64,000 bases of DNA from Malacoraja senta (taxonomy: Eukaryota), in NCBI GenBank assembly GCA_038087875.1, contig CM075994.1:6078001-6142000 (forward strand). The letters run 5' to 3'. The notes below the pieces were generated by a model. The model was not told the origin of the DNA. It did not search any database and saw only the letters and a program-made list of their open reading frames with translations. Numbering within the stretch: position 1 is the first letter of the stretch; every line of letters starts with the position of its first letter. Both the position numbers and the translations under genes were made by a program. Shown here one piece after another: positions 72-60,892 of the stretch.

Positions 72-990
72 AGGTAGACAAAAATGCTGGAGAAACTCAG
101 CGGGTGAGGCAGCATCTATGGAGCGAAGGAAATAGGCAACGTTGCGGGTCGAGACCCTTCTTCAGACTGATGTGAGGGTGGGGGCGGGAAGAAGAAAGGA
201 AGGGGTTGAGACAGTGGGCCTGAGAGCTGAGAAGGGGAGGAGAAAGTGAGGGCTACCTGAAATTAGAGAAGTCAATGATCATACCGCTGGGTTGCAAACT
301 GCCCAAGCGAAATATGAGGTGCTGCTCCTCCAATTTACGGTGGTCCTCACACTGGCCATGGAGGAGGCCCAGGACAGAAAGGTCGGATTCGGAATGGGAG
401 GGGGGACTTGAAGAGCTGAGCCACCGGGAGATCAGGGTGGTTATTGCGATCCGAGCGGAGGTGCTAGGCGAAGCGATCGCCAAGCCTACGATTGGTCTCA
501 CCGATGTACTGCTCTACATTGGTGAGACCAAGCGTCGGCTTGGCGATCGCTCCGCCCAGCACCTCCGCTCGGTTCGCAATAACTAACCTGATCTCCCGGT
601 GGCTCAGCACTTCAACTCCCCCTTCCATTCCGAATCCGAGCTTTCTGTCCTGGGCCTCCTCCATGGCCAGAGTGAGGACCACCGTAAATTGGAGGAGCAG
701 CACCTCATATTTCGCTTGGGCAGTTTACACCCCAGCGGTCTGAACATTGACTTCTCTAATTTCAGGGAGTCCTCACTTTCTCCTCCCCTTCTCAGCTCTC
801 CCTCAGCCCACTGTCTCCACCCCTTCCTTTCTCCTTCCCGCCCTCCACCCTCACATCAGTCTGAAGAAGGGACTCGACCCGAAACGTTGCCTATTTCCTT
901 CGCTCCATAGATGCTGCCTCACCCGCTGAGTTTCTCCAGCATTTTTGTCTACCTTCGATTTTACAGCATCTGCAGTTCCTTCTTAAACAT
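72..990. mobile_element. Penelope-like element (GIY-YIG tail plus pseudo-LTR) in foldback configuration
   Basis: Arms ~72-508 and 515-953 are reverse complements around the loop CTGCTC. They encode LYIGETKRRLGDR..QHL...HFNSP.HSESELSV...KLEEQHLIFRLGSLHPSGLNIDF, typical of the PLE GIY-YIG C-terminus. Confidence 0.88.
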
Positions 991-1460
991 CTTAAACATA
1001 AATAATGATGCACTTCAGAATGTTACGCTGTCGCGATAGAATCAAAAGCTTGTGATTTTTATTTTCAACTGTCTATGTGGAGACATGTATACAATCCTAC
1101 GAAGCTTCAGCCATTATTTCTGACCAGAGATGCTGCTTGTCCCGCTGAGTTACTCCAGCATTTTGTGCTTTTATCTCATGGTAGCTTGGCTGAAAATTAA
1201 AAAAGTCTCAGTGCGTTGTCTGGGAAACGATTCTTGTCCACGACCAGAGTAACTCTTTTATGTTTCTTTTCCTGCTCTTTCTCTCTACAATACAGGTGAC
1301 ACTAACAGAATGTAACTTTTATAACTGATCAATTCTGCTCTCCTCTCTGATGTTCTTGCTGTCTAAGCCGAAAGGTGTGACGCTTGAGCTAGTTTCTCTG
1401 CTGCAACGCTGCTTTAACTCTTCCTCTACGATGGGCACAGATAATTCACTGGTGATTCGG

Positions 1461-1790
1461 ACGGATCTGCAGATGCTGGTTTACACGGGAAATATACACA
1501 CAATGCTGGATTAACTCAGCGGGGCAGGCAGCATCTCTGTAGAAAAGGAATGGGTGGCGTTTCAGATCGAGATCCTTCTTCAGAGTGAAGAAGGGTCTCG
1601 ACCCTGAAACGTCACAATAGACAATAGACAATAAACAATAGACAATAGGTGCAGGAGTAGGCCATTCGGCCCTTGAGCCAGCACCGTCATTCAATCTGAT
1701 CATGGCTGATCATCCCCAATCAGTACCCTATTCCTTCATTCCAGAGATGCTGTCCGGTATGCTGAGTCATCCCAGCATTTAGTGTCCATC
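1461..1790. mobile_element. Palindromic PLE-derived mini-element interrupted by a CR1 3' tail (~1614-1730)
   Basis: Back-to-back cttcttcag / gaagaagggtctcgacc motifs with inverted arms. The insert starts with (acaatag)n followed by the CR1 3' UTR. Confidence 0.7.
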
Positions 1791-2679
1791 ACAGATAGTT
1801 CAATTCTGCCCTTATGAAGTTTGTCTGAACGAAGACCCGACTTTGGGCAGTTCTGTACCCTTTAGCAGACGTGCTTTCTTCGAGGTGTGGAATGTGAGGG
1901 CTAATGTTGCGATTGGGGATGATCAACAAATCCTTTGGAGGGAAGAGTCAGGAGTTTCAAAAAACATGGTGTAAATGTCAATTCACTAGAGTTGGTACGC
2001 ATGTTGCCCTGTGCTGACTCGGGTGCAGAGAGTAATCCCACTGTTTTCCATTGAATAACATAACTCTGCCATGCTTAGCTTATTTCTGAGGATAGGAGGT
2101 GCAAAGCCCTGAGAACCATTACCTCCAGGTTCAAGGACAGCTGCTTCTCATCAACCATCAGGTTTTGAACCACCTTGCATGACCCTACCTCAGCACTCAA
2201 CTTTGCACGACTATGGTTCTTCTACATTGGTTTTAACTAAAGATAGACACAAAAAGCTGGAGTAACTCAGCGGGTCAGACGGCATCTCTGGAGAAAAGGG
2301 ATAGGTGTCATTTCGGATCGAGACCATTTTTCAGACATTTTTCCGACAGGTATTTACTAATTTGCTCAAATATACAATAAATTATCAGTTGTTTTATTTG
2401 TGGTGTTGTTGCATCTAATGTGCTTGTAAAGCTGCAGCAAGTAAGAATGTTGTTGTTCTGGTTCATATGACAAATAAACACTCTTGAGAAATAATGATTA
2501 TCCGTCTGTTCAATACCCAATGTGCAAATTTGATCGTAATGACAGATAACTGGATATTTTTCCCCTGGTGGTCTACGGATGGACCTGGATGACAATACCA
2601 ATGGGTGGGGCTGTGAAGGTGAATGCTTGAGGATATGGTGAACCATGGCAGGGATGCCCATTGTAGGCTTTTCACAACT

Positions 2680-3129: not shown

Positions 3130-3785
3130 GATAGCCTACACTTCTTCCTACCCTGCTTCCTGTAAGGACTCTATCCCCCACTCGCAATTCCTCCATCTGC
3201 GCCGCATCTACACACAGGATGAGGTGTTCCAAACCAGGGCATCGGAGATGTCCACATTCTTTAGGCAACGGGGGTTCCCCTCTTCGACTATAGATGAGGC
3301 TCTCACCAGGGTCTCTTCTATATCCCGTAGCTCCACTCTCATTCCCCATCCCCACACTCGTATCAAGAGCAGAGTCCCCCATGTCCTCATCTTCCACCGT
3401 ACCAGCCTTCATATACAACAGATAATCCTCCGACATTTTCGCCACCTCCAACGGGATCCCACCACTTGCCACATCTTCCCATCTCCTTCCCTTTCGGCTT
3501 TCCGCAGAGACCGCTCCCTCCGTAACTCCCTGGTCAATTCGTCCCTCCCCAGGTACTTTCGCTTGCAACCGCAGGAAATGCTACACTTGTCGCTTTACCT
3601 CTCCCCTTGACTCCACCCAAGGACCTAAGCAGTCTTTCCAGGTGATGCAGAGGTTCACCTGCACCTCCTCCAACCTCTCTATTGCATCCGCTGCTCTATG
3701 TGTTAACTGCCCTACATCGATGAGACCATGCGCATGCTTGGCGATCGCTTCGCCCAACACCTCCACACAGGAGGTGTTGGGCGAT
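3130..3785 (+). mobile_element. Penelope-like element fragment (RT C-terminus to GIY-YIG)
   Basis: SEMSTFFRQRGFPSSTIDEAL...LRHFRHLQRDP...AFRRDRSLRNSLV then RFTCTSSNL. Ends in a 15-bp foldback at 3750-3784. Confidence 0.85.
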
Positions 3786-3979
3786 GCGATCGTCAAGCCT
3801 GCGCATTTAACAAACTTACCGAAGACAGATTGCCAGGGTAATCTGTATATTCACACTGTGGGCGGCTTGACAGTAATCGTGTATAGTCCTTCCGCTGATT
3901 GATAGCAGGCAACAAAAAACGTTTCGCTCTATAGGTACACGTGACAATAAACTAGATTAATGGACTAACTAGAAACCAA

Positions 3980-4500
3980 AGGCTCATCTATTGCATCCGC
4001 TGCTCTAGGTGGTAACTGCCCTACATCGGTGAGACCATGCGCAGGCTTGGCGGTAGCTTCGCCCAACACCTCTGCAGAGTTCGCATTAATCAAGATATCA
4101 ACCTGATGTCCCAGTGGCTCAGTACTTTAACTTCCCCTCCAATTCCGAATCCGACCTTTCTGTCCTCGGTCAGAGTGAGTCCCACCGCAAATTGGAGGGG
4201 CAGCACCTCATATTTCGCTTGGGTAGTTTACACCCCAGCGGTATGAACATTAACTTCTCCAATTTCAGGAAGTCCTTGCTTTCTGCCGCCTTCCCCTCCC
4301 CTTCCCAGCTCTCCCACAGCCCGCTGTCTCCGCCTCTTCCTTACTTCTTCCCCCCTCCAGACCCACATCAGTCTGAAGAAGGGTCTCGACCCGAAACGTC
4401 ACCTATTTCCTTCACTCCATAGATGCTGCCACACCCGCTGCGTTTCTCCAGCATTCTTGTCAACCTTCGATTTTACTAGCATCTGCAGTTCTTTCTTAAA
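3980..4500 (+). mobile_element. Penelope-like element 3' end with hammerhead-like motif
   Basis: GIY-YIG tail (KLEGQHLIFRLGSLHPSGMNINF), then CTGAAGAAGGGTCTCGACCCGAAACGTC at 4373-4400. Confidence 0.85.
4373..4400 (+). ncRNA. Minimal hammerhead-ribozyme-like core (best-preserved copy)
   Basis: CUGAnGA + A + stem II GGGU(CUCG)ACCC + GAAA + C-GUC. Helix I is weak (only about 2 bp evident), so activity is unproven. Confidence 0.6.
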
Positions 4501-11040: not shown

Positions 11041-11071
<31 letters not shown>

Positions 11072-12357: not shown

Positions 12358-12455
12358 GTCTCAAGGCTGAAGAAGGGTCTCGACACGAAACGTCACCCAT
12401 TCCTTCTCTCCAGAAATGCTGCATGTCCCGCTGAGTTACTCCAGCATTTTGTATA

Positions 12456-14442
12456 TACCAATCCTAAAGGACTGCTGGCATCATTACCAGAACACTGTTA
12501 AGGAGGCCAAAAGAGAATGCTTGTCAAACATTATTGTGTCTAATCGTCATAACCTACGTGTGTTATTTAAAACCATTGACTCTGTTCTTAATGCCCCACA
12601 GCCTGTCTGTTTGGAAGCATCCTCCGAAATGTGCAATGACTTCCTGCACTTTTTCATTGATAAGGTTGTTACCATAAGGGCTCTCATTTCAGCTCCTGCC
12701 TCTGACCCCTCTCATTCTGACCCATGCTTGGTGGTATTTGATAAGTTTGTGCCTGTGACATTGTCCCTTTTAGAGGATGTGGTTAGCCATATTAAGCCAT
12801 CAGGTTCCCTTGTGATGCTGTCCCTCCTCCTCAGCAGTATAGGGCAGTCGGTTCTTGCCATTATTAACATCAGTTTGTGTTCTGGAGTTGTCCCCGTAAG
12901 TTTTAAACATGCAGTAGTGCAACCCCTGCTTAAGAAACCTGGCCTAGATCAAACTGTATTGGCCAATTTTAGGCCCATCTCCAAGTTGCCTTTTATTTCT
13001 AAAATCTTGGAGAAAGTTGTTTACGCTCAGTTAAAACTTTTGTTGGACGAGCATAATATTCGGGAGGTTTTCCAGTCTGGGTTTAAAACTGTGCATAGCA
13101 CAGAGTCAGCATTGCTAAGGGTCTTTAATGACATCCTCCTAGCTAATGATTCTGGTGATTATGTGATTCTTGTCCTGCTGGACCTATCTGCTGCCTTTGA
13201 TACAGTGGATCATGCTATTTTACTAACTCGGTTAAGGCACCTAGTGGGCATTTGTGGTAGTGCCCTGGAATGGTTCAGATCTTATCTGGCAGACAGAACT
13301 ATGTGTGTAAGCCTTGCTGGTTTTGAATCCTCCTCCGCTCCTCTGTCATATGGGGTTCCACAGGGCTCAATTTTAGGGCCCCTGCTTTTCTCATTGTACT
13401 TACATCCTCTGGGTTCCATTCTTAGAAAGCATGGCATGTCTTTTCATTGTTATGCTGATGATAGTCAGATCTATGTTCCGCTGAAGAATAAAGATGCTTT
13501 CTCAGTCAAACCACTCCTGTTATGTCTTGATGACATTAAATCCTGGATGGCCCTAAACTTTCTAAATTTTAATGAAAAGAAAACAGAAGTGATAGTGTTT
13601 GGTCACAATGGCCCCGGTGAACTTCCCCCTGTTGACCTCGGTCCCTTGGCACTGTATGTGAAGCCAACAGTTTTGAATTTGGGTTTTAAGATGGACAGTG
13701 ATTTTAAATTAGATCGTCAAATAGGCGCGGTAGTTAGGTCCAGTTTCTTTCATTTAAGGCAGCTGGCAAAGGTGAAGCCCTTTCTTGAACGACAGCATTT
13801 TGAAACAGTAATCCATGCCTTTATCACGTCTCGGCTGGATTACTGTAACGCACTTTATTTTGGAGTTAGCCAATCATCCCTTGCACGTCTCCAGTTTGTT
13901 CAGAATGCTGTTGCTCGCCTTTTAACTGGAACACGTAAGAGGGAGCACATAACGCCTCTTCTGGCCTCCCTCCACTAGCTGCCTGTGTACTTTAGAGTTC
14001 GTTTTAAGTTTCTTTTATTTGTTTTTAAATCATTAAATGGTCTCCCCCCGCCTTACCTCTCTGGGCTGCTTCATCCCTACGCTCCTGCTCGGTGCCTCAG
14101 GTCAGCTGATCAGCTGCTCCTGGAGGTACCGAGGTCTAAGCGGAAGCTCAGAGGGGATAGAGTCTTCTCTGTTGTTGCTCCGACATTATGGAACGCTCTA
14201 CCTTTGAACATTAGACAGGCCACTTCAGTGTCCATTTTCAAAACGAGCCTTAAAACCCTTTTCTATTCCTTGGCTTTTGACCCTGCATGAGACTTTGCTC
14301 CTGTTTTAGTGTTTTTTATTGTTTTTACTGTCTTTTAATGTTTTGTTGTTTTGTTTTATGTATGTGATTGGTCATGTACAGCACTTTGTTGCAACGGTGG
14401 TTGTTTTTAAAGTGCTCTATAAATAAAGTTATTATTATTATT
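12456..14442 (+). mobile_element. L2-clade LINE, 5'-truncated, with long open RT region
   Basis: NFRPISKLPFISKILEKVV, FQSGF...HSTESALL, LLDLSAAFDTVDH, GVPQGSILGPLLF, YADDSQIY, AFITSRLDYCNAL. 3' end is tataaataaag(tta)n. Confidence 0.93.
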
Positions 14443-15369
14443 ATTCAGATAATAATCTGCCTTGTTCTCAATGATGTAGGGAAATAAAGAACAATGAATG
14501 AAAGATGCGAAATAGTCATGATTATAAATGAAACAGCCCATTGTTGGGTGATATGAATTTTGATTTCTCTAACGGAGTAACCCCGCCATTCCCTCTCTCT
14601 TTATCCCTCCTCCACCTAAGTCGCACCAGCTTCTCATTTTCACCCAACAAACAGCAAACAATGGTTTGTTTCCTTTATCATCGAGACATTATTGCATAAC
14701 TTTCATTCATTGTTCTTTATCTCACCACATCATCGTCCATAGCTCTTGTTTCTCTTTTCCCTAACTAGTCTGAAGGACTGTCGCGACCTGAAACATCACC
14801 CATTCCTTCTCTCCAGAGATGCTTGCTGTTCCGCTGAGTTAACCCAGCTTTTTGTGACTATCTTGCCTCTACAACCATGGCTTGTAAGAAGCGAGGATTT
14901 CAAGGGATCTTGTTGAAATGTTCAGCTTGCCTCCTCTTCAGTGATCATGTTGATTTTAGGCTCCACTGTCACTTTAGCCCAGATAAAGCAATGTCTTCGT
15001 CACAGTCTTATTTCTCATTCCACATAGCAGCTCCAAATATAGGTTTTGCAAACCCTGTCTCCAACAGTGATGCAATAATCCTATGATTGCAGTTTGCCAA
15101 CGTGGTCCACCAAAGTGAAACACCAGATCCATAGTTTTGTGTTTATAATTTCGTCTCCAAAAGTGTTGCATCCTGCAGATTGATGTTTGCAAACTGTGTC
15201 CAGAGTGATGTACCAGCGCACAGAGTTATATGGGTCCCTGTCTCCGCATCAATTTGAGAAAATAAAATGACAACACAAAGTAAAATTGCTTTTGGATTAA
15301 ACTATACAAAAGATAGTTTAACTTGTTGCTGTTGCAAGAATTGTTATAACCCATACTGATCTCTCCCTT

Positions 15370-16630
15370 TAGATAAACACAAAATGCTGCAGTAACTCAG
15401 CACGACAGGCAGCATCACTGGATATAATGAATGGGTGACGTTTCAGTACAAGGCCGTTATTCAGACTGAGAGTCGGAGAGAGGGAAACACAGCGATAAGG
15501 ATGTGTAAGGTGTGAAAATGAGACAGCAAAGATATCAGATAAAGGAAAATGTAGAATAGATCATTGTTAGCTAGAAAGTGACAACGAAGCATTCGGAGGT
15601 AAAATGTAATCAGGGGGACTAGTCGGAGAACTAGGAAGGGGAGGAATGGAGAGAGAGGGAAAGCAAGGGCTATTTGAAGTTAGTGGTCAATATTTAAACC
15701 GCTGGGGTGTAAGTTGCCCAGCGGAAATATGAGGTGCTCCAATTTGCACTGGGCCTCACTCTGACAGTGGAGGAGGCCCAGGACAGAAAGGTCAGTGTGG
15801 TAATGGGAGGGGGAGTTAAAGTGTTTATCAATCGGAGGGTCAGGTAGGTTTAAGCGGACTGAGCGGAGGGGTTTGGTGAAATGAGCGCCGAGCCTGCGCT
15901 TGGTCTCGCCAATATATAAGAGTCCACACCAGGAACAGCGGGTACAGTAGATCAGGTTGGAGCAGGTGCAAGTGATCCTTTGCCTCACCTGAAAAGTCTG
16001 TCGGGGTCCTTGGACAGAGTTGAGGAAGAAGGCATAAGGACTCTCCCCTGCGGTTTCAGGCAGAAGTATATGGGCAGGGAGTGGTTTGGGTGGGAAAGGA
16101 CGTTAACCAGGTAGTTGCAGAGGGAATGAACTCTGCGGAAAGGGGAAAGATTCTATTTAGAGATGCTGCCCGTCCCGCTGAGCTACACCAGCATGTTGTG
16201 TCTATTTTTGGTGTAAAGCAGCATCTGCAGTTCCTTCCTAAACATACTGATCTTCCCCCAATAATAGACAGAAAAATATGGGCAGGTTACACACCAGCGG
16301 TATGAATATTGACCTCTAACTTTAAGTAACCCATGGTTTCCCTCTCTCCATCCTTCCTAATCCTAGTTCTCCGACCAGTCTGACTGTCCCTCTAATTAAA
16401 TTTTATCTATGTTTGCTTTGTTGCAACCTTCTGCTATCTAACAATGATCTATTCTACATTTTCCTTGACCCAGCAGCTCTTTTGATGTCTCGTTTTCACA
16501 CCTTACTCTTCCTCGCCTCTGCGTCTCCAGGTCCCCTGACTCTCAGTCTAAACTGAAACGTCGCACATTCCTTCTCTCCGGAGATGCTGCCTGTCCCGCT
16601 GAACTACTCCAGCATTTTGTGTCTATCTTC
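15370..16630. mobile_element. Penelope-like element with inverted terminal segment
   Basis: Minus-strand GIY-YIG (NLIYCTRCSWCGLLYIGETKRRLGAHF, 15680-15988). Segment ~16290-16630 is an inverted copy of ~15370-15710. Confidence 0.82.
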
Positions 16631-20540: not shown

Positions 20541-20542
20541 GA

Positions 20543-24011: not shown

Positions 24012-24064
<53 letters not shown>

Positions 24065-28383: not shown

Positions 28384-28396
28384 GTCTTTGGGGTTA

Positions 28397-37899: not shown

Positions 37900-38880
37900 A
37901 ATACTGACTTGGCCTCCACAGCCTTTTGTGGCAATGAATTCCACAGATTCACCACCCTCTGGCAAAATAAACTCCTCCTCATCTCCTTCCTGAAATAACG
38001 TTCTTTAATTCTGAGGCTATGACCTCTGGTCCTAGACTCTCCCACTAGTGGAAACATCCTCTCCACATCCACTCTATGCAGGCCTTTCATTATTCTGTAC
38101 GTTTCAATGAGCCCCCCCTCCCCTCATTCTTCTGAGCGTTGTAATTAAATTTTACTGTTTGTATGTCACCTTCCCCTCAGCCAACAATGAACCATTCTAC
38201 GTTTCCTTCATCATTGTCTACTTTGATCTGTCGTTTTCGCTCTTTGCCATTACGTATTTCTAGTTTCTCTCTCCTCGACTCTCAGCCTGAAGAAGGGTCT
38301 CGACCCAAAATATCACCCATTCCTTCTCTCCAGAGATACTTCTTATCCCTTGTATGCTCTAGAATTTAGAAGGAATAAATCTTATTGAAACCTATGTTTA
38401 AGAAGGAACTGCATATGCTGGAAAATCGAAGGTAGACAAAAATGCTGGAGAAACTCAGCGGGTGAGGCAGCATCTATGGAGCGAAGGAAATAGGCAACGT
38501 TTCAGGTCGAGACCCTTCTGCAGACATATAAGATTATTAAGGGTTTGGACACGCCAGAGGCAGGAAACATGTTCCCGATGTTGGGGGAGTCCAGAACCAG
38601 GGCCCGCAGTTTAAGAATAAGGGGCCTGAATAAGGGGTAGGCCCGGAATCCTACAAGAAGAAGAAGAAGGGGTAGGCCATTTAGAGCGGAGATGAGGAAA
38701 CACTTTTTCACACAGACTGTGAGTCTGTGGAATTCGCTGCCTCAGAGGGCCGGTTATCTGGATGCTTTCAAGAGAGAGCTAGATAGGGCTCAAAGATAGC
38801 GGAGTCAGGGGATATATCACAATGAATGGTGGTGCTGGCTCAAAGGGCCGAATGGCATACTCCTGCACCTATTGTCTATC
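37900..38880. mobile_element. Cluster of CR1 3' fragments (both strands) and PLE mini-elements
   Basis: SRTRGHSLRI..RVVNLWNSLP on the minus strand (37900-38130). CR1 on the plus strand at 38525-38880. Hammerhead-like motifs at 38287 (+) and ~38496 (-). Confidence 0.75.
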
Positions 38881-39975
38881 CTGCTGAGTTATTTGTGTCT
38901 ATCTTTAATGTAAACCAGCATCTGTAGTTCCTTCCTACATGTAAATTAATCTGCTTTCATTTTTGCCTGGCAGTTTAATCCACAACCTAAGCACTTAAAA
39001 AATATATCCTTGAGTCACTTTAGTTTAGTTTATTGTCATGTGTACTGAGGTATAGTGAAAAACCTTTTGTGTTTTCCTTTGCCGTTCACCTTCATTCTTT
39101 TATAGAGTGAAAGTGTTAAGCAGTACAGAAGCAGACCCTCTGTCCCTGCCTATGGACAATCATGCCTATCTATACCACCCTCTTGCTAGCAGGAATTTCA
39201 CATCTATCTGTGTCCCTGAGCAAACAACAAAATGCTGTGGAACTCAGCGGGTCAGGCAGCATCTTTTGAGGGAAAGGACAGATAAGGTTTCTGTTCCCTT
39301 ACCAGATGCTGTCCGACCCAATTAGTTCCTCCAGGACTTTGTGTTTTCCTCAAGTTTCCAGCATCTGAAGTCTCATGTCTTTTTGTGTCCTGTTCATTCA
39401 AGTAAATGTTGGCATAGTTCCTTCCTCTGCTACCATCCATGTCATACCACTTTCCCATCCGCTCTTTGCACGTTATGGGCAATGTTAGAGGCCAATTAAC
39501 CATCATTTGGACATGGGAGGTAAACGGAGGACCTGAAGGAAACCCACAAGGTCACAGGGGGAACATGCAAACTCCACACAGACAAGCTCCCATGGTCAGG
39601 ATCAAACCCGCATCTGGCACTGAGAGGCAGCAGCTCTACCGTCTGTGCCACCGTGCTGCCCCTTTGAACATACAAACCCGTTCAAAAGATGTACAGGTTT
39701 GTAGGTTAATTGGCTTCGGTAAAATTGTAAAATGTTGCGTGTGTTTAGGATTGTGTAAGTTTACGGGGTGATCGCTGATTGGCATGGACTTGGTGGGCCG
39801 AAGGGCCTGTTTCTACACTGTACCTCAATTCTAGTTTGCCAACTTAGGAACATGACTTCAATATTCTTATCAGAATCACTAATACGAATGACAAACAGCA
39901 AATGACCTGGCACCAATCCCACTGCTCACAAGCCTCTAAGCTTAAAAGCACCCCTCCACTATTGTAATGTGGAAC

Positions 39976-42900
39976 TGTTAAGGTTCATGGATGAAAGGGC
40001 CTTTTACTTGTAGGTAAAGACGTCCACAGTTTAACCAATTTTTCCAATCCAGAGGTCATATTAATCAATTTCCGTGATAGACAGGCTGTCCCATAAAGTG
40101 GGAAGCAATCATCCAGAATTGCTCTGACTCTGATATACTTTGCTTAGCCCTCATCGGGAATATATAACAGTTAGATGTTACACAGCTCACATGTGAGGGA
40201 CAACAAAGGCCAAATAACAGCATCTCCTTCAGTTGTAGGTTAGCCTGATCAACCTTTCCCAGTTCTTCTCATCCCCAGGTGCATGCCCATAATCCACATA
40301 AAAATACGTCCCATTTATTGGACTCAGCGGCCACTAACACTAACCTTGGAGCAGTATACTATACTTAAGACGGAGTATACTTAAGGCTGTTCCTTAAGTA
40401 TATTCCGTCGCTTCGTTTGTCACAATAACGGGTTAACTGGGCTCTGGGGCAATTCACTAATTTAAGTCGTGGTATTTCCCAAATCCTGGTCTCTTACCTT
40501 CCATTCTAGCTTAAAAGAGGCCGTATACCATCCTTTAAATATGGGTCCCTGAGCTTGCCGTTGTGAAGGCACCCATTAGTTGCTGTTTTATTGCGAAAAT
40601 AGTGTACGGCCTGAACCTCAGTAAGGTTAAGGGGTATTGTCAAGAGGGAAGTGCATACACAACCAGTATACACTTATTATCACAAAGGGCAAATTCAAAA
40701 CTCATAATAAACAAATTATTTCACGAAGTTCAGTCCATTTCGGCCAACCCCAGAATAAAAAAGAAGGGTCATTAACCCCATTGTCCTTTTTTGTTCTCTG
40801 ATCTGTTTATAGTCAATCAGATGTATCCTCTTCATGGCAGTTGATGTTATTGGTAGCACCTGCTACAGTCCCTTTCAACACTGTCCCAATTTCTTCTGAT
40901 CCCAGTACCATATCAGTTCGTAGTCTGATAGTATGGACTCCTCCCTGTGTTCAACGGATAGTGGCTTCTTTGACTCTCATACCTGGGAATAACCCAGCTG
41001 GGGTTGTTCTAAAGCACCAAAATAGCTGAATACATGAACCCATTCTTGTCCAGTCTCAGTCAAGGCTTTACTTAAAAACTTTTTAGTGTCCTATTCATTC
41101 CCTCCACTAATCCAAAACTCTGCAATTAGTGGGAGATATGAAATCAATCTTTAACTACTGACTAGGCAGAGCCTCCTTCATCACCTTCCCTGTGAAACGT
41201 TTACCTGGTCAATCTGAAGAGGGACCCCCCCACTTAAATATTATCTCTTTGACTCCTTATCACAATTCTAGCTGTTCTATCTTAGTATGGGAATACCGTT
41301 ACCCAGTAAAGCAATCAATCAGTACTAAATAGTACCCTGTATTTTGTGACTAGAACAAGGGTCCTGTGAAATCTATCTATCTATCTATGTTGATCTGCAG
41401 GCTATACTCATTTTCCATTTGGCATGCCAATTATCTCATACTGCCCTTAACATCCCTGCTTCTAAGTTCACACTATACTATGGGGAGAGTATAAACTATA
41501 ATCCCCCTCAGTGTGTTGAGCTCTAAGATTTCCACTGCCCATGTTACTTATTCACGTACTTAAGCACATCAGTACAGCCAAGCTAACACTGGACTTTGCC
41601 TAGGGAACAACAAACAACTGTTCTCATTCTGTCTTTATAGTCTGTTACTACCACTTTTTGTATCCTTCATTATCACAGCACAATGGTAGTTTAGTCATAT
41701 ATAAGAATCCCAGTGCTGGGAAGGAGGTCAGGGATAGTTGATATTTTTGTCTGCAATAATCCAAATATGTTTCTCCTCCCCAATCTACTCTATCTCTCAA
41801 CATTTACTTCCCATAGTGATTTCTCTCAAACTACGGTCTGATGTAATCAACTAGCACAAAACACATGTTACAAGCTTCCTTCCACACATTTTAAGACAGG
41901 AAAGCTGGCTACTCTTGCATTCTAAAACACAAACACTGTCCTTACATCAACTCCATTGAACTTCAACAAGACAAAAATATCTTTATTTTCACCACATTAG
42001 AAAGAACATAATTTTAGATGTTCTTAATAATGTACTTTGTACATTTATGTACTTTTGTACTTTTCATTCTTTATGGGCACTTTGCCCCTGGCTATCTTCA
42101 GCTAAATAATCCACTTGTCTAAAAAAAGTTTTGAAAGTCGGCGCTTTATATACCCGCGTCACGCACGACAACCTCTTTTCGGCCATTGCCCAAGTGGGTC
42201 AGGCCCTTCAATCTATGCTTTATTTACATCACTTCTCATCCTTCTAAACTCCACAGAGCATGTCCAACTTGCTCATCCTTTCTTTTTAACATGGAATTAA
42301 CTTAACCCGAAATGTTCTCCTGAAATCCGCTTTTTTAAAACAAGCAACTTCATTTTTTCAACTACAAGGACACCCAGATCCCCTTGCACAGCTGTATTCT
42401 AAAGTTTAAATATTCTTATTTTCTATTCTTCCTCCCTAAATGAAAATATATATATATTTTCCTACATTATGATCCAACTGCCAAATTCTGTCTCAGTCAA
42501 CCTACACTTAACAATTTTATGGCATCATCACTTACTAACAAATTTGACTATAAAATAGTCTTGCTCTTTTCTTAAATCCAAATTAATAACATGGATGATC
42601 AATAACTGAGGTAGACAAAAATGCTGGAGAAATTCAGCGGGTGAGGCAGCATCTATGGAGCGAAGGAAATGGGCAACGTTTCAGGTCGAAAGCCTTTTTC
42701 AGACATCAGTTATTGATCATGCTATCATGATCCATAACTGATATGCTAGCATTCGCTCTTGTAGCACAAGTGGTATTCTGGAAACTTGAAAACAGTCTCT
42801 TTAAGAATAAGGGGTAGGCCATTTAGGACTGAGATATTAGCTCATCCAATCTCATCTAACACATGGCCAGTGTGGCATCCAAGTCTCCTTTTGAACTCAA

Positions 42901-45801
42901 TCCAAAAGATAAGAAATAGGAAGAAAAACTTAAAATACCAATAAGACAAAACAAACAACGTACATTTTTTCATCTCTCTGTTAAAAGTTAAGAGAAAATA
43001 AAGAATAAATTAATTTTCATAGATTACTAACGCACTTGCAAAGAACAAAGAAAATGAAAATAACCTTGTGTGACTCCACCTCCACACAACTACTGACTTC
43101 TTAAAGAGACACACACTACCTCTTAAAACACATTAGTCTACAAGGATTTCTTACATAAAAGAGCAAAAGCTCATTCAATTACATCCTATTTCATCTGAAA
43201 TATGGGATTTAATTCAACATTCATCAGAACCCATTCCTTAAAAATGTAACAATCTTTAAACTTACTTATTTTATACCTTTTTTTTCTCTCTGACATTCAC
43301 AAGTTGCCACACCTCATACAATATGCTAAATCTCACAGATATTCACACACTTTAAAACAATAAAATTATCACTCAAATGTAAAACAGTTATACACACCTC
43401 AAGGAAATCATTCTAACTCTTAAAACTTTGATACACCCTAATACGTTCATAAGATTGCCCACCATTTTACACATTTACTGAATTAACATGGAATTTTCAC
43501 AAGGAAAATGGACATCTTAATTAGGTTTTTAAGTTGTACGGTGTATCTCTATTGTTTTCCCTTATCAGCATGCGTAAGGGGGTGTGTATATAATAACAGG
43601 CAGAAAAATATCAATTACACAAATTTGTCCAAGAGGGGTGTGAGCCAGAGTCCGGTGGTGGAATCAATGGCACAGCCCTCTCGTTTCCATAGTCATTGCA
43701 CATAGAGGCGTCCCTCTATAATTCCTAAACCTCCCTCATTTGTCTGACAAGACCATTCTGTCTACTAGAATCTTTGGTTCTATGGGGACCAATGTACAAA
43801 ATTCGCAAGCTAGGACATTCCCCTGGGAGTCTTTGTCGTGGCCACTCATATGGGTATTGCACTTAATAATGGCTAGGTGGACTGGGAAGGCTGAGGCTAG
43901 TGTAGTGGTCAGCGTTGTCTTTAAGTTGTGAAAGTCTTCTTCTTGTTGGAATGAGAGAGTTAAAATGAATAAGAATTAACCAAGCCCACAAAACCCTCAT
44001 CTGCTAGGAATGGGCGGGCTGGTATGATTCACAATGGGTGGTCCAATTCCCTGTCAATCAGGATCCTGGGCACTGTGATTGGACAGTGATCCAGATTGTG
44101 ATTGGTCAGACTCCCTGTCATTCAGGATGTTGCCACACCCCATAACCATTGGGTCACTCACACACTCTCTTCTGTTCTTTCTCCAGCAGAGGCGAGCTCT
44201 GTGCCAAAAGTGGTTCGAAGGCAAGTTTGTTTCAAACTGTACAGGCTGTTGGCTTGTGATTTTAAAGTTCTCTGAGCAGCCTCAATTCTCATGCTTTTTT
44301 TTCTTTTTCCAATCTTTAATTTATCTGCAGTTTTCTCTCTCTGGTCATCTGCGTTGTTTAACTCTCTCACTGCTGATTTCAATTACTGCTCCTTCTCTTC
44401 TGCATCAGCCATTTCCCTTCTTTCTCATCTGCCTTTTCAGTCTCCGAGTCGCTATCAGTATCATTTTCATCTAGGGATACCCTTTTCTGGAGGGGTGCTG
44501 GGAGCCTCGCCCTCCCAGCGGGATCTTTTATGGGGAGGTGGTCTACACTATTCCCAACTTTATTCCTTCATTCCCCCTCTTCTATAAACAGGGTCACCAT
44601 GTCAGACAAGGCGTCTCTAGAGGACTTATCGGTACCGGGTTTGTTCTAAACCATTAATTGCTTGTTTTCTGAACTTTCTTAACAGCGCTTTCTCTCTCTA
44701 TCTTGGCCATTTTCACTTGTTCCTCTGCCCACTGGCATATTACTTTTAGGATTCAAATAACATATGTGTTGCACAGCATTCCCCTGTCACTTTAGTTCAA
44801 ATTGTTACCCATTATTCCAGTGTGTTTAAACATTTACTTAATTGTGAATGACAGGCTTTCTACCTGCGGAGCCAATCACCGACTACTTTCCTAGCAGCAA
44901 ATACGGGTGTTCCCCCGTCACTTTTATCTAGATTATTCCTCATAGCTGCGAGATTCTCCCAGCCCAGCTATTTTGTGAACGACAAACTTTTTTAGTTTGC
45001 GAAGCCAATTGCCAACTACTCTCTTAGTAGCAAAATACCTTACCAACAACTTTCCCAGTAGCAAAACGTCTTACTAACTACTTTCCTAGTAGCAAATTCT
45101 CTTACCAACTACTTTCCTAGTCGCAAAAATCTCAATACAGTTGGTCTTACCTTCGTTGTCTGCATCTAAGAATTTCGGCATGGCACCAGATCAACTACTA
45201 CGAAGGACCTAAGTTTTCCCAGGAGCTTCTTCGGGAGGTCGGTCTCAAGGGGTCCGACTGGTGCACTTTTTTCTCCCATCCGATCCTGCTCAAACTACGG
45301 CCTCTTACTCGGTCGTCTGTTGATGGTCCCAGCGAAATCCTGCCAACTATATGAAATGTTAAGGTTCATTTCTTAAAACAGACAACTCACAAGCTGTTAG
45401 ATAAACCAACACAAGCTTTACTGATCATTTAGCCAGCGAGAGTGCCACAGGATTCAAAGTCAAGTATGCAGCAGATTCTTAACCCCACCCCCCTCCCCCA
45501 GGCCACCACTCTAATGAATTAAGACATCCAAGGTACACAAAAATGCTGGAGAAACTCAGCGGGTGCAGCAGCATCTATGGAGCGAAGGAAATAGGCAGCG
45601 TTTGGGGTCGAAACCCTTCGGGCCGACCACATCCAACATCTTTTTATAGTATTACGGAAACATAGTCACATGTTTATACAGAGTTGGAGCAATGACGTCC
45701 AACACATCAATCAGAAACTTGATCAACATTTACAATTCTGTCTTAACAATGTATTCTTCAGTCAGCTACCAACCAGAAGTTCCTGCTCACAGAAACCTAC
45801 G
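39976..45801 (-). mobile_element. Decayed endogenous retrovirus, antisense within rbm4 intron 1
   Basis: Integrase motifs on the minus strand: IDFTGPL...YYLVLIDCFT (~41300-41380), GVPLQID.Q..RFTGKV (~41180-41230), QSFGLVEGMNRTLK (~41080-41130). 5' LTR ~45357-45801 with CTATAAAAA and AGTAAA. tRNA-Ser-like PBS at 45336-45354. The LTR end TGTTAAGGTTCAT occurs at both 39976 and 45357. Confidence 0.8.
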
Positions 45802-45942: not shown

Positions 45943-47793
45943 CAGGGCTCGAAATTAGAGGTTGCCCGGGTGCCACTGACCACTCAAAGCACCGCCCGGG
46001 CAACCTAAACACTGAGTCATTTTGCCCGGTTTGGCAACCAGATACTGGTTTGTACCGAAGAGAGACACAAAAAACTGGAGTAACTCCGCGGGTCAGGCAG
46101 CATCTCTGGAGAATAGCAACGTGATGGCGGTGACGGCTGTCGTGCGGGGCAAAGATACTAGGTGCGGGATGAGGAAGGGTCGGAGCAAATGACGGGCCCC
46201 GAACAGCGGCAGCAGCGGCCGCGACCGCGGCTCCATCTCCTCCTCCCGCACCCCGCCCCCCTGATAAGGGCCGCTGCTTGTAAATCCACTAACGGCGATA
46301 ACCGCTTTCAAAACAAACCCTCCCGCACTTCGAGGGAGGGAGGGGAGGCCTCGAAGTTTACAAGCAGCGGCCCTTATCAGGGCTGGCGGGGGGCGGGAGG
46401 AGGAGGCAGTGGAGCCGCTGCTGCCGCTGTTCGACTTTTTTACCGCCCGGCCCCGCACCTTGCTGTTGGCTGGCGGAGGAGGAGGCGGTGGCGAGGAGAT
46501 CCCAACGGCCAAGGCAATGGGGCGATGTTGTCCGAGGAGCGCTGACCTTCCTTCCTCCCCGCCTCGCCCCCTCTCTCTCTCTCTCTTGTACGCCGCCTCC
46601 ACCCCCTTATCCTGGGACCCCTCCACTTCATCCCACACTGATCCCCATTCCCGCCTCTATTCGGTCCTCACTGACATCCCCTGTGCTCCCCTCCCCATCT
46701 ACCCCCCCCCCCATCTATTCATCCTGCGCTGATCACTCTATCCACCTCACATTGATTCTCCACACTGTACTGACCCACCTCCCCCCATTCATCCTGTACT
46801 GATCCTCCCATTCAAGAAGAATGGGGGGAACAGTCTGAAGAAAGGTCTCGACCCGAAACGTTGCCTATTTCCTTCGCTCCATAAATGCTGCCTCACCCGT
46901 TGAGTTTCTCCAGCACTTTTGTCTACCCCCATCCATCCCGTACTGAACCCCCCCCCCCCATTCAACACCACTGACATCCCCGGTGCTCTCCCCTCACAAT
47001 TTTACCTACTCCAACCAACACATACTAATTCACCTGCCTCAATCCATCCATTCTGCACCGACTGCCTTCTAACCCACCCCCCCCCCCCCCCGCCATCTAT
47101 CCACACCTCCCTCCCTGACCCTATTGTGCTGGAAATGTCTTCAGAGCGAACTTTGACTATGTTTGATAACGGAATGCAATCAAATGTGTTTTAATTCCCA
47201 ATGTTATTATTTGTTTTAATACATTAAGATGGATTCATTAAATTGTGAGTGAACACGTGAAACATTAAAACGCGCAGTGTTCGATTGTCACTGCTGCCGT
47301 TGACACGTTATTACAGAATTCATTTTAACAGCAAATCAATGCTCTTAATATGGAGTATCAGTACTGTAGTTATTAATGAGCAACAGTCACAACTATACGT
47401 ACGCATGTATTTTCCATGGTCCAGGATTTAATTGACACAGGTTGATCATATGCTGAATAATCCACCACATTGTTGTTTGGAAGTGGAAAGAACTAATAGA
47501 AATTGCATTAATTGCAACGTGTAAATACTGCCTTATAATTTGCTGCATGTCATTGTGGGATATATCATGTCTTGATTGGTGAATATGTTTAGTTTGTGAC
47601 TTTATTTGAAGCAGAAATAATATGTGAATGCTTCATTGAGTATAATTCCGACCACGCACTTCGTCCGAGCACATTATTGCATGCGTCATGCAAGCCATCT
47701 TAAATGACCACCTAAACTGTCATTTGGCAACCTAAAAAGCTGCCAAGGTTGCCCGGCTGGCAACAGGGGAAAAAAAGTTAAGCGAGAGCCCTG
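45943..47793 (+). mobile_element. Non-autonomous DNA transposon (TIR CAGGGCTC), inserted into an antiparallel copy of itself
   Basis: Ends CAGGGCTCGAAATTA / TTAAGCGAGAGCCCTG with flanks ATGAG / ACGAG. The host copy spans ~45801-45942 plus 47794-48954 (ends AATTTCGAGCCCTG). Confidence 0.82.
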
Positions 47794-48442: not shown

Positions 48443-50139
48443 TTGCAGCTGCTTCAGACGGCGGATGGAGGCCTCCGCCTCCCTCTCCCCCTCCTCCGGC
48501 CTCGGCGTGCGAGAGGGGTTGTTTGAAAGCGCCGTTGGCGGATCTGGGCGATAGCGGCCGCTGCTTGCAAATCCACCAACGGCGCTTTCAAAACAACCCC
48601 TCTCGCACGCCGAGGCCGGGAGGAGGGAGGGAGAGAGAGGCTTCCTTCCGCCGGGCGGGATGCAGGAGGAGGAGGCGGTGGAGCCGCTGCTGCGGCTTTT
48701 CGGTGCCCGTCATTCGCTGCGACCCTTCGTCACCACGCACCTAGTATCTTTGCCCCGCACAGCCGCCGCCGACACGAAACGTCATGTTCCTATTCTCCAG
48801 AGATGCTGCCTGCCCGCGGAGTACTCCAGTTTTTGTGCCTATCGGTATAAACCAGTATTGATTGCCAAGCCGGGCAAAATGACTCGGTGTTCAGGTTGCC
48901 CAGCGGCACTTGGGTGGTCAATGGCACCTGGGCAACCGCTAATTTCGAGCCCTGAAGTACATCCTCTCCCACCATTGTAGATGATATTCTACTTGGCACG
49001 TAAAGGAACAGTTTGAATGCTGGCCTCCAATTTCTTGATTCCCACATTTCTACAGCACAGAATTTCAAAGCTTTTATTTACTCAACCCAAAGAAGCGATC
49101 ACGTTTGGTCGCGCTAGGCGCATGCTGGTGGGACAGGCCCTTTAGTCTTGGGACAATTTTGTCTTATAACTATTGTTTTCTAATATTCGGCCTTCTCTTT
49201 CCACAAGCTATTTAATATCACGAATTTAATCTTCATTTTCAGACTTGTTTCTGCTTATCAGCTGCCCTAGGAAGTCAACATTTCCCAATCAACTCTCTTT
49301 GTTTCTTACACAAAAAAGTCGTATCAAGTTAGAAACAGTTTGCTTTAGCCGATCAGCGCTGGTAGTTCCCTAAGCAATCCATACTTGTTCAAGAGATTGC
49401 TAAAATTGATAATTATTTCAAAAACTTTTGCTTTTCATGTGCATAAACTCGCCTTGAATTTTCTTGTTTACTGCAGCAAGTGTGGACAATTCACCAGACA
49501 TGTTGTCCAGCGTTGCAGGGAACTGGTGAAAGAGGCGAACCATTTGGTCATGTGACAAGCATCTCTTCTACCCCTTGTTTCTCCCCAGGTCCCCAATAAT
49601 TTGCTCTTTAAAATCCATCCCTATCAGTCATTTTGTATTAACAAGGAACTGCAGTTGCTGGGTTACACCAAAGCAAGACACAATGCTGAGATAACTCAGC
49701 AGGTAAGGCAGCATCTCTGGAGGAATGCTAATAGGTGATGTTTTGGTCTGGACTGAAGAAGGGTCCCAATCCGAATGTCACCTATCCATGTTCTCAGAAG
49801 ATGCTGCCTGACCCACAGAGTTACTCCAGCATTTTATGTCTTTCCATCAGTCTCTTACTTGCGTACCCTCTTTGACAACTCTTTAGTGTTGATTTTCACC
49901 TGTGCCAAGTGCACCGAAACATTCTGCTTTGTTAAAGGTGTGTTAGAATTGAAGTTATTTGCACGGATAGAAGTTTACTGTAAGGCAATTTGTTTTTGGA
50001 AGTCTGAATCTTGATTTCCTCGCCCCATTTTGTTGCTATTTTCCTAGAATGTAAAATGCAAACACATGTGCAATTGTTTGTGTATAGGAGGAAGAGATTT
50101 CATTTGATTTATAACCTGTACTTCCTTATCCTTCAACAG

Positions 50140-56645: not shown

Positions 56646-59384
56646 AGGTTAGCACTGTTAAAAACATTGTCAGTTTAAACCGTGTTGCTGAGGTAATTCT
56701 CCAGGAATCTTTTGCTTTCAGGAAGCAGACTGTATCTGCAGTTTGGCATGTTTGCGCCATTGATGCCACTTTTGACATTCATTTGCTGCCTTCCACCATC
56801 ACGGAGGATAGGGATCCTTTTGGAGTTCTTGTTTCCATTGAATGTGGCAGCACTCATTTGGTGTAGGGTAACAATTCTACAAATTGTAATTTATCCCTAG
56901 TGTGGAGGATAGTGCTAGTATATGGGATGATCGTTGGTCGGCCTGTTTCCACGCTGCATCTCTAAATTCTACTAATGTGTAGAAAAGATCAGTCTGAAGA
57001 AGGGCCTCGACCTGGAATGTCACCCATTCCTTCTCTCCAGAGATGCTGCCTGTCCAGCTGAGTTACTCCAGCAGTTTGTGTCTATCTTTGCTGAGGTAAT
57101 TCTCCAGGAATACGTGTGTCAAAGGTTATCAGGAGAATGGAGTTAGGAGGGACAGATAGATCAGCCATGATTGAATGGCGGAATAGACTTGATGAGGCAC
57201 GTGGCCTAATTCTGCTCCGATCACATGATCTAATTCTGCCTGTTTTGGATTGTTTTTATTCTTCAGCAAACATGTAGTTCTGTGTATTTTACCTGAATGG
57301 TACCTCTTGGGTATCCCAGGGGCGATATCGTTATGCCCTTCTACACTCCCAGAATAAGGATTAGTCCCCTGGCTTGATGGCCGATAATAGAGTGAGCTAT
57401 ATGCAGGGATATGAGGTGACGGATTGTGCTAAAACACAATTTTGCTATCAGCAATGGTCCATAAAATTTTGTGCATGGCCCATTTAAAATGCCATTTTAT
57501 AAAATTCTATAAAGTGGACCTATTTCATAAAGCATTGGTAGAGCAATGAGACGCAAAATGCTGGAGTAACTCAGCAGGTCGGGTAGCATCTCTGGAGATC
57601 GTGAATAGGTGATATTTGCGGTCGGGACCCGATCTTTAGTCTGAAGATGGGATCCGACCTGAAATGTCACCTGTCCATGTTCTCCATAGATGGTGCCTGA
57701 CCTGCTGAGTTACCCTGGCACTTTGTCTTTTTTTTAAACCACCATCTGCAGCTCTGTGTCTCCATGTTACAAGATGGCCCTTCATCACCATAAAGAATGC
57801 AGTGGTCTTTCCTTCTAATTAGTGCCGTGGAAAATTGGTGTTCAGCAGGCAAATGGGCAAGAATGCAATGTTAGGCTTATCCATCTTGTAATTAACTCCT
57901 CCCTTATCACAGACCCAGTCTGACAACTGTGTTTATCAGACCTTGGACAGCTATGCCAGTGGTGCTAGTAACAAGCTGTTTTTGGTCATGGCACTGAAGT
58001 CTCCCACCCAAAGTATATACTGTGCCCCTTAATGTTTATCTACTTATTGTTACCAGTGCTGTCACCATTTGTTGCTCGTACCTAATTGCTCAAGAATGCT
58101 GCCTCTTTTAACTACTCCAGTACTTTCACCATGTGGTTGTTAGAAATTCTAGAATTTGTATACAGCAATTGTATTTCCAAGTCAGGATCATATGTAATTT
58201 GGTTCCTTATATTCTCCATGCTGGTAGAGGTCACGAGATAGGAATCAACTACCTAGTTGCGTAACTGCAACGCATATTGTAGATCGTGACACATCAAAGC
58301 TTCTATGTGCTTTCAGTGGAGTGAATAAATATTGAGTGTGAGGCGGACTGGTTTTTGATTGAGCAGGCTGCTCTGTCTCCAATGATGTTTTGTTGCAGTT
58401 TGACCGTGTGAGTTTTCTCTGGATGCTCCAGTTTCCTCTCGTATTCCAAAATCTTGCAGGTTTGTAGGTTAATTGGCTTCTGTGAATTGTCCCTAGTGTG
58501 TAGGGTAGAACTAGTATACTGGTGATTGCTAGTCGGTGTGTACTCAGTGGGCCAAAGTGCCTGTTTTCACACCATATTTCATCCAGGTAAATCACATTCT
58601 ATTCTTGTGGATTATGGATTGTGGGAAGGTTGATGGTTTCAAGAGAAGAGTAGCTTGCCTCGGAATGCTTGTGCTTGCACATGCTTTATCTCCCACTTCC
58701 CTATTGGAGCATTTCCCTCCTTTATGTCCAGTTTGACCAGGTCTCTGTCACCCGCTGCTTTGATGTGCATCAGTCTTATTTCTCACCCCCTCAGGAAATA
58801 GGCTCTTTTCCCTGTAAGTTGTGATGAGACGGAAGTAAGCTGTCTGACAAAACCCTAACTGGACATTGGTGAAGCAGATATTCAGTTTGGGGTTTGCTTG
58901 GACCATTTGGCTCACTTAGTAAGGAGGAGTTTTTTAGTCACTTTCCTGATTGATGGTTGGCTGATCAGGAGCTAATTATCTGTTCACATATTTGTTGTGC
59001 TGCTGCAAGTAAGAATTTCATTGTCATGTGCCCCAAAACGGAACAATAAAACACTTGTCACTTATGCGGAAGAAGGGACTGCGGGTGCTGGTTTACATCG
59101 AAGATAGGCACAACATGCTGGAGTAACTTGGTGGGCCAGGCAGCATCTCTGGAGAAAAGGAATAGGTAACATTTTCGGTGAAGACCCTTCATCAGACTGA
59201 AGGGTCTCGACCTGAAATGTTGTCTATTCCTTTTCTCCGGAGATGCTACCTCACACTTCGCTTTTAATTGGACTGGATGTAACCTGGTTTTTGGGGTCAG
59301 GACATTGTCTTACAATGTAGAAAATTGATCAGTAGATGTCAGTGTTGCATCTGTTCTGGGACAATAGGCTGCAATTGTAGTGAA

Positions 59385-59935
59385 GTTTCTTGTCACATGT
59401 ACTGAGCTACAATGAAAAGCTTTTGCTGCATGCTCAGTGGAAAGACAATACATTATTACAATCGAGCTATCCACAGTGTACAGATACAAGATAAAGGGAA
59501 TAATATTTTTGTTTAAGATAAAGTCCAGTAAAGTCACATTATTAATAGTCTGAGGGTCTCCATTGAGCTCAGGACTGCTCTCTGGTTGTTGTTGATAGGA
59601 TGGTTCAGTTGCCTGATAACAGCTGGTAACTCCTGAATCTGGAGGTATACTTTTTCACAGCTCTGTACCTCTTGACTGATGGAAGAGGGGAGAAGAGGGA
59701 GTGACTGGGGTAAGACTCGTCCTTGATTATGCTGGTGGTCTTGCCGAAACAGCAGATGTGTAAATGGAGTTGGAGATTGGTTTGTGTGATGATCTAGGCT
59801 GCGCCCACATTTCTCTGCAATTTATTGTGGTGTTTGGATGGAGCTGTTTCCAAACATCCTGAGGAAATGCTTTCTATGGCACATCTGTACGAGTTGCTGA
59901 AAGTTGTTGGGGACATGATGAACTTCCTAATTCTC
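59385..59935 (-). mobile_element. Rex1/Babar 3' fragment
   Basis: Collinear with 8545-9250 (tccttgattatgctggtgg, ttcagttgcctgataa). Confidence 0.75.
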
Positions 59936-60892
59936 AGGTGTCATGGTGACAAGAGGATCAAAAGCAAAAGTCAAGAACAGATTGTTACAGCGGAGGGGGA
60001 GGAAACATGAAAGGTAAAGTAGTTAGTCCCTGCGCTGAGAGAATGTAACAATGATCCAGTTCATCTTTTCCCTCGATCAATAAAACTGATCATTGTAATT
60101 ATGATGGACAGTTAGTTGTTACACTTTAACATGTTGTCAGCTTGTCAGCAGAGAATGGTTGAAAGTGGTAACAGTTTCAATCCCGACTAGATTTATAAAT
60201 TCCATGCAGTACTCATGAATAGATCTAGAAGGGTCCCGATCCGAAACGTCACCTAATCCATGTTCACCAGAGGTGCTGCCCGATCTACTGAATTACTCCA
60301 GCACTTAGTTGTTTTTTGGAAACTGGCATCTGCAATTCCCTGTGTCTAAGGACACTGATCTGTTTGGGTACAAGACTTGAACCTTTGATTTATAGGGCTT
60401 TATATTACCAGAGCTTAGTTACATTGCAACATAATATGGGAGTGTAAAATGTTTTTAGTATATTTTTGACCAGAACATAAAGAACGGGGTGTACGATGTG
60501 CCAGATATTATGAGAATGACTTTAATGGCCTGGTATTCTCACTTTAACCCTGTCAATTGCTTATCTGTACAGAGTTTGTACATTCTCCCCGTGACCTGTG
60601 TGGGTTTTCTCTTAAGATCTTCGGTTTCTTCCCACACTCCAAAGACGTACAGGTTTGTAGGTTAATTGGCTTGGTATAAATGTAGAATTATTATCCCTCG
60701 TTTGTGGGGTAGTGTTAATGTGCGGGAGATTGCTGGTCTCAGTGTGCCGAAGGACCTGGTTTTGCGCTGTATCTCTAAACTAAACAAAGCTTCCACTCTG
60801 CATCCCCCAGTGTTTGAATTCTTCTTAGATGTGTCTCCTTTTTGGAACAACAAAAACTGGAATTGTATCTGCTGTTGTTTTATTATCTAGGG

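Follow-up and report, generated by a model that had tools for sequence, protein, structure and literature searches.

Hammerhead-bearing repeats in a Malacoraja senta locus are terminal units of Penelope-like retrotransposons with short insertions sharing a fixed 5′ edge

Repeat copies in the window

A 64,000-nucleotide stretch of the Malacoraja senta genome (GenBank assembly GCA_038087875.1, contig CM075994.1, positions 6,078,001 to 6,142,000 of the forward strand; hereafter the window, with coordinates counted from its first base) carries numerous copies of a repeat built around a minimal hammerhead ribozyme motif. They form the terminal unit, hammerhead plus tail, of Penelope-like elements (PLEs), autonomous retrotransposons that encode a reverse transcriptase (RT) and a GIY-YIG endonuclease. 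A first-pass annotation of the window had listed 21 copies of the motif, and all 21 sites do carry the repeat within 0–3 nt of the coordinates given. The high copy number claimed for the family stands, but the list itself is an undercount, as a search with a 134-nt profile of the unit gave 39 matches in the window, 137 in the surrounding 264 kb and 0 in reversed sequence. This profile was made from 38 copies, with the seeds L014, L018, L021, L036 and L046 excluded as irregular or duplicate. Positions written with a minus or plus sign are relative to C3 of the hammerhead.

The C-terminus of the GIY-YIG endonuclease lies upstream of the copies at 165, 861, 4373 and 15464. The first two belong to one insertion at 61..1007, identified from its flanks and the profile as a head-to-head pair of 5′-truncated PLE 3′ ends; each arm comprises the GIY-YIG C-terminus, an untranslated region (UTR) and a hammerhead (72–508 on the minus strand, with a short tail and C3 at 165; 509–990 on the plus strand, with a long tail and C3 at 861), and a 10-bp direct repeat at 61–70 and 998–1007 flanks the whole. 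An interrupted, 5′-truncated PLE at 3131..4498 (+) retains the C-terminal part of the RT together with the GIY-YIG domain (3131–4266), followed by a pyrimidine-rich UTR and a tail that extends to 4498; its hammerhead motif (4373–4400) is the sole fully intact one among the listed copies. At 3726–3809 an inverted fragment of the PLE open reading frame (ORF) forms a hairpin, to which Rfam gives a spurious sub-threshold miRNA match. An older PLE lineage is represented at 15365..16140 (−) by a GIY-YIG end, a different UTR, a degenerate hammerhead (C3 at 15464) and a tail.

Short head-to-head pairs lie at 1464..1615 (right arm cut by another repeat), 49640..49842 (a long and a short arm), 57550..57727, 59074..59255 and, in degenerate form, 36652..36853 and 39222..39375, and a pair at 61009..61149 consists of tail halves without the hammerhead. 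Solo short copies occupy 12364..12463 (+, short tail), 31823..31950 (−, long tail), 38398..38526 (−, long tail, in a fragment of a long interspersed nuclear element), 42601..42704 (−, short tail), 45519..45619 (−, flanked by an 8-bp direct repeat), 56988..57095 (+) and 60227..60334 (+, 5′ end degenerate). A PLE-type UTR precedes the copies at 14767..14880 (+, hammerhead degenerate) and 38282..38349 (+, 3′-truncated). Two short copies sit within other repeats, one at 2233..2336 (−) that starts at the hammerhead 5′ edge and one at 46830..46931 (+) whose upstream flank is shared with locus L015. Inverted G+C-rich repeats occupy 45800–48900 of the window, and short PLE copies are found at the equal place of these repeats in other loci (L015), so that a composite repeat carried the unit passively.

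The parent element

The Penelope origin proposed by the first-pass annotation is borne out, as the unit ends ORF-bearing elements with RT and GIY-YIG domains. At 25 of 30 RT loci obtained from a protein search, the 3′ region of the element lies at the expected distance, and 22 of these 25 reach the hammerhead. At locus L182, an upstream truncated copy (a pseudo-long terminal repeat, pLTR) is followed by an open frame of 1,224 aa, which includes a long Pro-rich region, and by a second hammerhead 3,918 bp past the first. Pfam recognizes RVT_1 (E 5.9e-4) and GIY-YIG (E 1.4e-3) in this frame, at scores that tell against the assignment in lying under the curated cut-offs (20 vs 29.6 bits and 19.4 vs 22.6 bits, respectively). 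Relatives of the protein number 753 at E<=1e-30 among 8,000 scored, and among the 120 relatives listed most carry PF00078 and many PF01541.

The linker of the L182 protein reads C-NRKR-C-NT-C, i.e. CX4CX2C, and fits the CX2-5CxxC motif described before the endonuclease (PMC8557442; published sources are cited here and below from the parts available). This linker suggests an element of Neptune type; Nematis likewise has a linker finger, so CX2-5CxxC is not unique to Neptune (PMC8557442). The L182 copy itself is probably inactive, because its RT motif reads YIND. Both ends of the elements at loci L131 and L132 are formed by the unit, the 5′ one continuing into the ORF; the L131 element starts at −4, next to an unrelated upstream flank. 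Traits of endonuclease-bearing (EN+) PLEs are present in the form of a partial tandem pLTR (L132, L182), 5′ truncation and inverted 5′ copies, as is their optional 30–40-nt tail, visible in the two 3′ ends at ~+93 and ~+130. Judged by ORF, pLTR and tail, the element is a member of the EN+ PLEs. The distinct non-autonomous SINE- or retrozyme-like family envisaged earlier was not upheld: the unit is the end of autonomous elements, and young short copies are identical to these elements over the 63 nt searched.

Pieces of the element also occur in tandem. About 17 copies of a 63–70-bp piece located at the PLE stop codon and UTR start lie at L205:750-1860, close to a contig end, and a ~66-bp tandem unit made of tail, starting GAAACGTC, was seen at three loci (L128:6022-6230, L160:304 and L095:6141). 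This tail-made unit may be a small element-derived satellite.

Short insertions and their ends

The short copies are true insertions of 95 or 130 bp with 10–16-bp target-site duplications, which agrees with the earlier expectation of short, ORF-less insertions. In 216 copies that extend across the 5′ portion of the motif, the upstream sequence is an inverted tail in 73, unique in 78, unique and pyrimidine-rich in 12, and a shared UTR or other shared flank in 29. The GIY-YIG end precedes just 24, so that older subfamilies are tied less well to a parent.

The youngest family comprises 5,823 exact 63-mers, 3,338 of which also have the last 8 UTR bases. Ten of the first 30 young copies start at −14 to −1 by BLAST (exact sharing of 1–5 nt), and the starts of the other 20 are scattered from −46 to past −1,500. 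Young short copies, for which 13 loci were added as UTR-less, start at −6 to 0 and bear 10–16-bp duplications, and several retain 3–6 bases upstream of a putative CAG acceptor. Duplications of at least 8 bp flank 12 of 61 unique-flank copies in unbiased samples, against 0.7 in shuffles; over all loci, duplications of at least 9 bp flank 49 of 577 copies, against 2–6 in shuffles, and 26 of these 49 start at −7 to +1. A search on nine window copies gave one clear duplication and one weak 6-mer; older copies are too decayed.

At the other end, copies terminate in clusters near +93 and +130. The predicted cleavage site shows no peak: the first aligned position is 35 in 4 of 372 profile matches, against 188 at positions 1–6, and a single one of the 49 duplication-defined copies starts there. 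This copy, L126:2992, has a 17-bp duplication, a start exactly 3′ of the predicted cleavage site and 3 nt of microhomology; it is a possible rare product of cleaved RNA.

Head-to-head pairs

Head-to-head arrangements are frequent, with 68 pairs accounting for 136 of the 372 matches, and tail-to-tail arrangements number 10. Where checked, head-to-head pairs are single insertions, and most pairs have one short and one long arm. All five clean young palindromes have a single 11–16-bp duplication and arms ending at ~+94 and ~+131; a sixth, at L171, is complex and has no duplication. The window insertion at 61–1007 is a longer example of such a pair. The 44 pairs that could be classified comprise 34 long+short, 9 short+short and 1 long+long, against expected numbers of 21.3, 15.4 and 7.4 (p=7e-5). 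The motif had been reported on both strands of the window, and this reflects insertion orientation together with head-to-head pairs, not one ribozyme per strand.

The hammerhead motif

The intact motif of the window (4370..4402, +) displays the features of minimal hammerheads laid out in PMC4209133: a 2-bp helix I (4371–4372 with 4401–4402), CTGAAGA at 4373–4379, an extra A, a stem II of GGGT/ACCC with a 4-nt loop, GAAA, a CG palindrome and a TC cleavage triplet end at 4400. The strict core pattern is kept in 5 of the 21 listed copies, and the CG palindrome and 4/4 stem II pairs accompany it in one (4373). The copy at 59195, singled out earlier for its CTGATGA, does have that sequence. The T, found in 10 of 176 copies, is a single-base variant at position 7, which is free to vary; this copy has also lost 1 nt from the stem II region and reads TG instead of CG.

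About half of the unit copies span the hammerhead (183 of 372 profile matches). Five subfamily consensuses were built from 13–50 copies each, at 6.5–18.5% mean divergence, after clusters of 1, 2 and 5 sequences (3 of 8 clusters, 8 of 168 rows) were dropped. The 22 positions that make up the core, stem II, bulge and palindrome are invariant among these consensuses, whereas 15 of the 54 positions downstream differ (p=0.004); loop 2 and position 17 vary within permitted limits. The core boxes CUGANGA, GAAA and UH, the extra base after A9 and the G10.1-C11.1 pair are present, and the palindromic 15.2-16.2 of the dimeric helix III type is CG in all five. The minimal type I core and ACGT palindrome recognized by the first-pass annotation are invariant in the five consensuses. 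The hammerhead is constrained in the master lineages, yet template ends are not set by it.

Copy-level selection on the core was considered and rejected, mismatches amounting to 7.2% in the core vs 7.4% at invariant tail positions (26% at the CpG-borne G12), and the inserted copies decay neutrally. Many copies are decayed, as had been suspected: the core is intact in 73 of 183, and core, palindrome and full stem II in 35 of 183. Helix I was thought to have eroded copy by copy, but its pair frequencies in the 183 copies (0.84, 0.76, 0.07 and 0.05) indicate that it is already 2 bp in the master sequences. The 4–5-bp helix I of PLE minimal hammerheads was not encountered, and a bulged 4-bp helix I, read by eye, could be formed in the oldest subfamily. 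In stem II, a one-sided change from U-A to U-G, which keeps the closing pair, is present in 21 of 168 copies; no two-sided change distinguishes the subfamilies.

The covariance-model check that had been recommended detected no Rfam hammerhead in the window at E<=5, nor in a 251-nt stretch of a young copy at E<=10, and no stable hammerhead fold was found among five folded copies (z 0.07 to −2.2). A monomer with a 2-bp helix I has a predicted energy of −3.9, vs a minimum of −5.5 kcal/mol. As the match to minimal hammerheads fails at helix I, membership as an active ribozyme is not established, and self-cleavage of the predicted ribozyme is doubtful. Cleavage by the hammerhead, should it occur, would depend on dimerization and on assistance from a protein, a rather unlikely prospect. 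The PLE hammerhead of Anolis requires protein for cleavage, and insertion in vitro proceeds without the hammerhead (PMC11167929).

Origin of the short insertions

The short copies are probably, though by no means certainly, the outcome of reverse transcription, by the enzyme of the element itself, that starts inside the tail and runs off the 5′ end of the RNA, with a predicted transcription start 3–6 nt before the core. The transcript would begin just before the hammerhead, and priming in the 5′ tail copy would generate run-off cDNAs of 95 or 130 nt. PLE RT starts internally at two sites and requires sequence downstream of them (PMC11167929); by analogy with this Anolis element, the two 3′ ends would correspond to a pair of internal sites of RT initiation, and priming of both target strands by a dimer of the protein would produce the asymmetric palindromes. 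The fixed 5′ edge would be the transcript start, as an initiator-like TCAGTC sits there. This sequence fits the initiator TCAKTY, and between +18 and +27, counted from A(−3), a sequence resembling the motif ten element (MTE) agrees at 8 of 10 positions with the consensus given in PMC1475891; the Drosophila Penelope has an internal promoter with an initiator and a downstream promoter element (DPE) (PMC2377424). In one raw RNA run, from a related sample, tail reads are plentiful on both strands (~870 and ~780 deep), and reads break off at −6, −2, +92 to +94 and +128. This run shows no pile-up of read ends at the cleavage position, a weak test.

Several observations weigh against such a run-off origin. 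The RNA run has no pile-up of read starts at the 5′ edge and hardly any reads over the first half of the ORF. Both promoter-like matches, to the initiator and to the MTE, were noticed post hoc, the latter having a chance of 0.003 for one fixed place. Ten of the 49 duplication-defined starts lie at −10 to −17, with extra bases between duplication and element, and 13 lie inside the unit, several of them tandem artefacts. Arm lengths could not be assigned in 24 of the 68 pairs, and a long arm that has decayed may be counted as short. Finally, a strong RT pause at the 5′ edge would yield identical insertions.

A bolder version, speculative and unlikely as it stands, holds that the hammerhead has lost its cutting role and that its sequence now acts as an internal core promoter, with the initiator at −3 and MTE/DPE-like positions spanning stem II and GAAACGT. 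A single RNA site, used for two priming events by a dimeric enzyme, would then have given rise to several hundred thousand run-off and asymmetric palindromic insertions.

The main rival retains the same elements and reads the 5′ edge as an RT pause or joining hotspot, caused by the hammerhead fold, the TCAG-T-CTGA palindrome or the upstream C-rich tract, with the short copies as hotspot 5′ truncations. This, too, appears rather unlikely. A pause would accommodate the 57% of youngest copies that pass through the point (3,338 of 5,823), the many head-to-head junctions centred on the small palindrome and the RNA without start pile-up. Against it, none of 30 young copies stops in the C-rich tract (−15 to −45), solo copies flanked by duplications lack a partner arm with which to anneal, and the hairpins predicted to be strongest are situated 3′ of the edge, in sequence whose folding is unremarkable by the z scores above.

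A self-propagating, non-autonomous retrozyme or SINE family, with its RNA cut and perhaps circularized by an active dimeric hammerhead, is distinctly improbable. Such a family would account for the invariance of core, stem II and palindrome among subfamilies, for the U-A to U-G change and for the one duplication-defined copy that starts exactly at the cleavage site, and an array at L181:2217-7229 (G000:C1, ~28.902-28.907 Mb) also speaks for it. This array contains 13.1 x 384-bp units, each made of UTR, hammerhead, tail and ORF start; the 11 full units are identical, and the whole lies inside an 11-bp duplication and ends at the short RT start site, a structure that fits rolling-circle copying of circular RNA, recent local expansion or assembly artefact. 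The array junction was seen at L181 alone, though, and a dispersed family of the 384-bp unit was rejected, as five other loci with the pattern proved to be variants of the natural ORF end. The missing peak of copy ends at the cleavage site and a helix I of just 2 bp further argue against a retrozyme, as do the window's lack of any long array of tandemly repeated full units and the match of young short copies to the autonomous element; 8 of 9 tested Xenopus dimers were uncleaved (bioRxiv 10.64898/2026.07.22.740005).

Last, it is very improbable that the edge is a 3′ splice site and the short copies derive from spliced RNA: a pyrimidine tract and CAG do precede the motif in all lineages seen, and the Drosophila Penelope intron ends at helix I (PMC4209133, PMC2377424), but young short copies lack a common exon upstream, the element follows immediately on the target duplication, and no such joint is among the best-supported joints listed for the RNA run.

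Comparison with known elements

With the minimal type I hammerheads of metazoan PLEs (Cervera and de la Pena 2014, PMC4209133) the present motif shares the core boxes, the extra base between 9 and 10.1, the G10.1-C11.1 pair, a palindromic 15.2-16.2 without loop 3 and the pLTR position, as well as the prevalence of solo copies and the occurrence of close opposite-strand pairs, which were already noted there. It differs in a helix I of 2 bp vs 4–5 bp, although 2 bp was reported for D. virilis. The copy number is far above the 4,000 coelacanth and 9,000 Xenopus descriptor hits, numbers obtained by different methods. The fixed start at the motif 5′ edge is not described in the available part of that paper.

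The Poseidon element PAc of Anolis carolinensis (Frangieh et al. 2024, PMC11167929) likewise has two genomic 3′ ends 30–40 nt apart downstream of the hammerhead, priming of both strands and no ends at the cleavage site. The present element has a Neptune-type linker instead, and its first ATG lies ~160 nt after C3, against a position at stem II in PAc; the available text on PAc contains no analysis of short run-off-like insertions or of arm asymmetry, both seen here. Shared with the Neptune-type EN+ PLEs (Craig et al. 2021, PMC8557442) are the RT, the CX4CX2C linker, the C-terminal GIY-YIG domain, partial tandems, inverted 5′-truncated copies and a tail at one end only, the last two being known PLE traits. 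Distinctive here are the 1,224-aa frame with its long Pro-rich region and the clear 10–16-bp duplications in non-microsatellite targets; the Neptune clade is suggested by the linker.

Non-LTR retrozymes (Li et al. 2026, bioRxiv 10.64898/2026.07.22.740005), reported in one chondrichthyan, are also pLTR-derived and hammerhead-bearing, and the L181 array falls within their tandem definition as given in the available text. The window copies differ in being solo or head-to-head, not tandem, and in matching autonomous elements. No account of this repeat family or of its fixed 5′ edge was found in the literature, subscription papers, supplements, Repbase and Dfam lying outside the search, and the family may be catalogued in repeat databases or supplements (e.g. 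of PMC4209133 or the 2026 preprint).

Abundance and genomic setting

The 1.94-Gb genome contains 20,906 occurrences of an exact 27-mer of the repeat (10,406 + 10,500; control, 0 + 0). Sixty 10-kb samples from large contigs contained 237 profile matches, or 3.95 +/- 0.45 per 10 kb, which extrapolates to roughly 0.75 million copies of the tail unit genome-wide, provided the sample is representative. In the window, two exons at 37015–37437 and 62087–62854 (+) enclose about half of the repeat copies, which are presumably intronic; from its RRM start, CCHC knuckle and YSAAQ repeats, this exon pair is taken to be an RBM4-like gene. On the minus strand, LTR-retrotransposon-like pol/gag fragments at 25803–30299 flank a 200-N gap at 26289–26488.

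Implications

The kind of element described here is already known, but its mechanistic footprint is unusually clear. The role of Penelope hammerheads and the origin of inverted and tailed insertions are open questions (PMC8557442, PMC11167929), on which the insertions of M. senta bear directly: they indicate that ends are not set by cleavage, and they provide a one-short-one-long rule for palindromic insertions. With some 0.75 million tail copies by extrapolation, the unit is a major genomic repeat and a source of 100–130-bp hairpins in transcripts. The thousands of near-identical young insertions with clean duplications locate the 5′ edge of the template, as well as the two RT start sites, within a few bases, and if the promoter reading is true, they would amount to a genome-wide record of PLE transcription starts and of both RT start sites.

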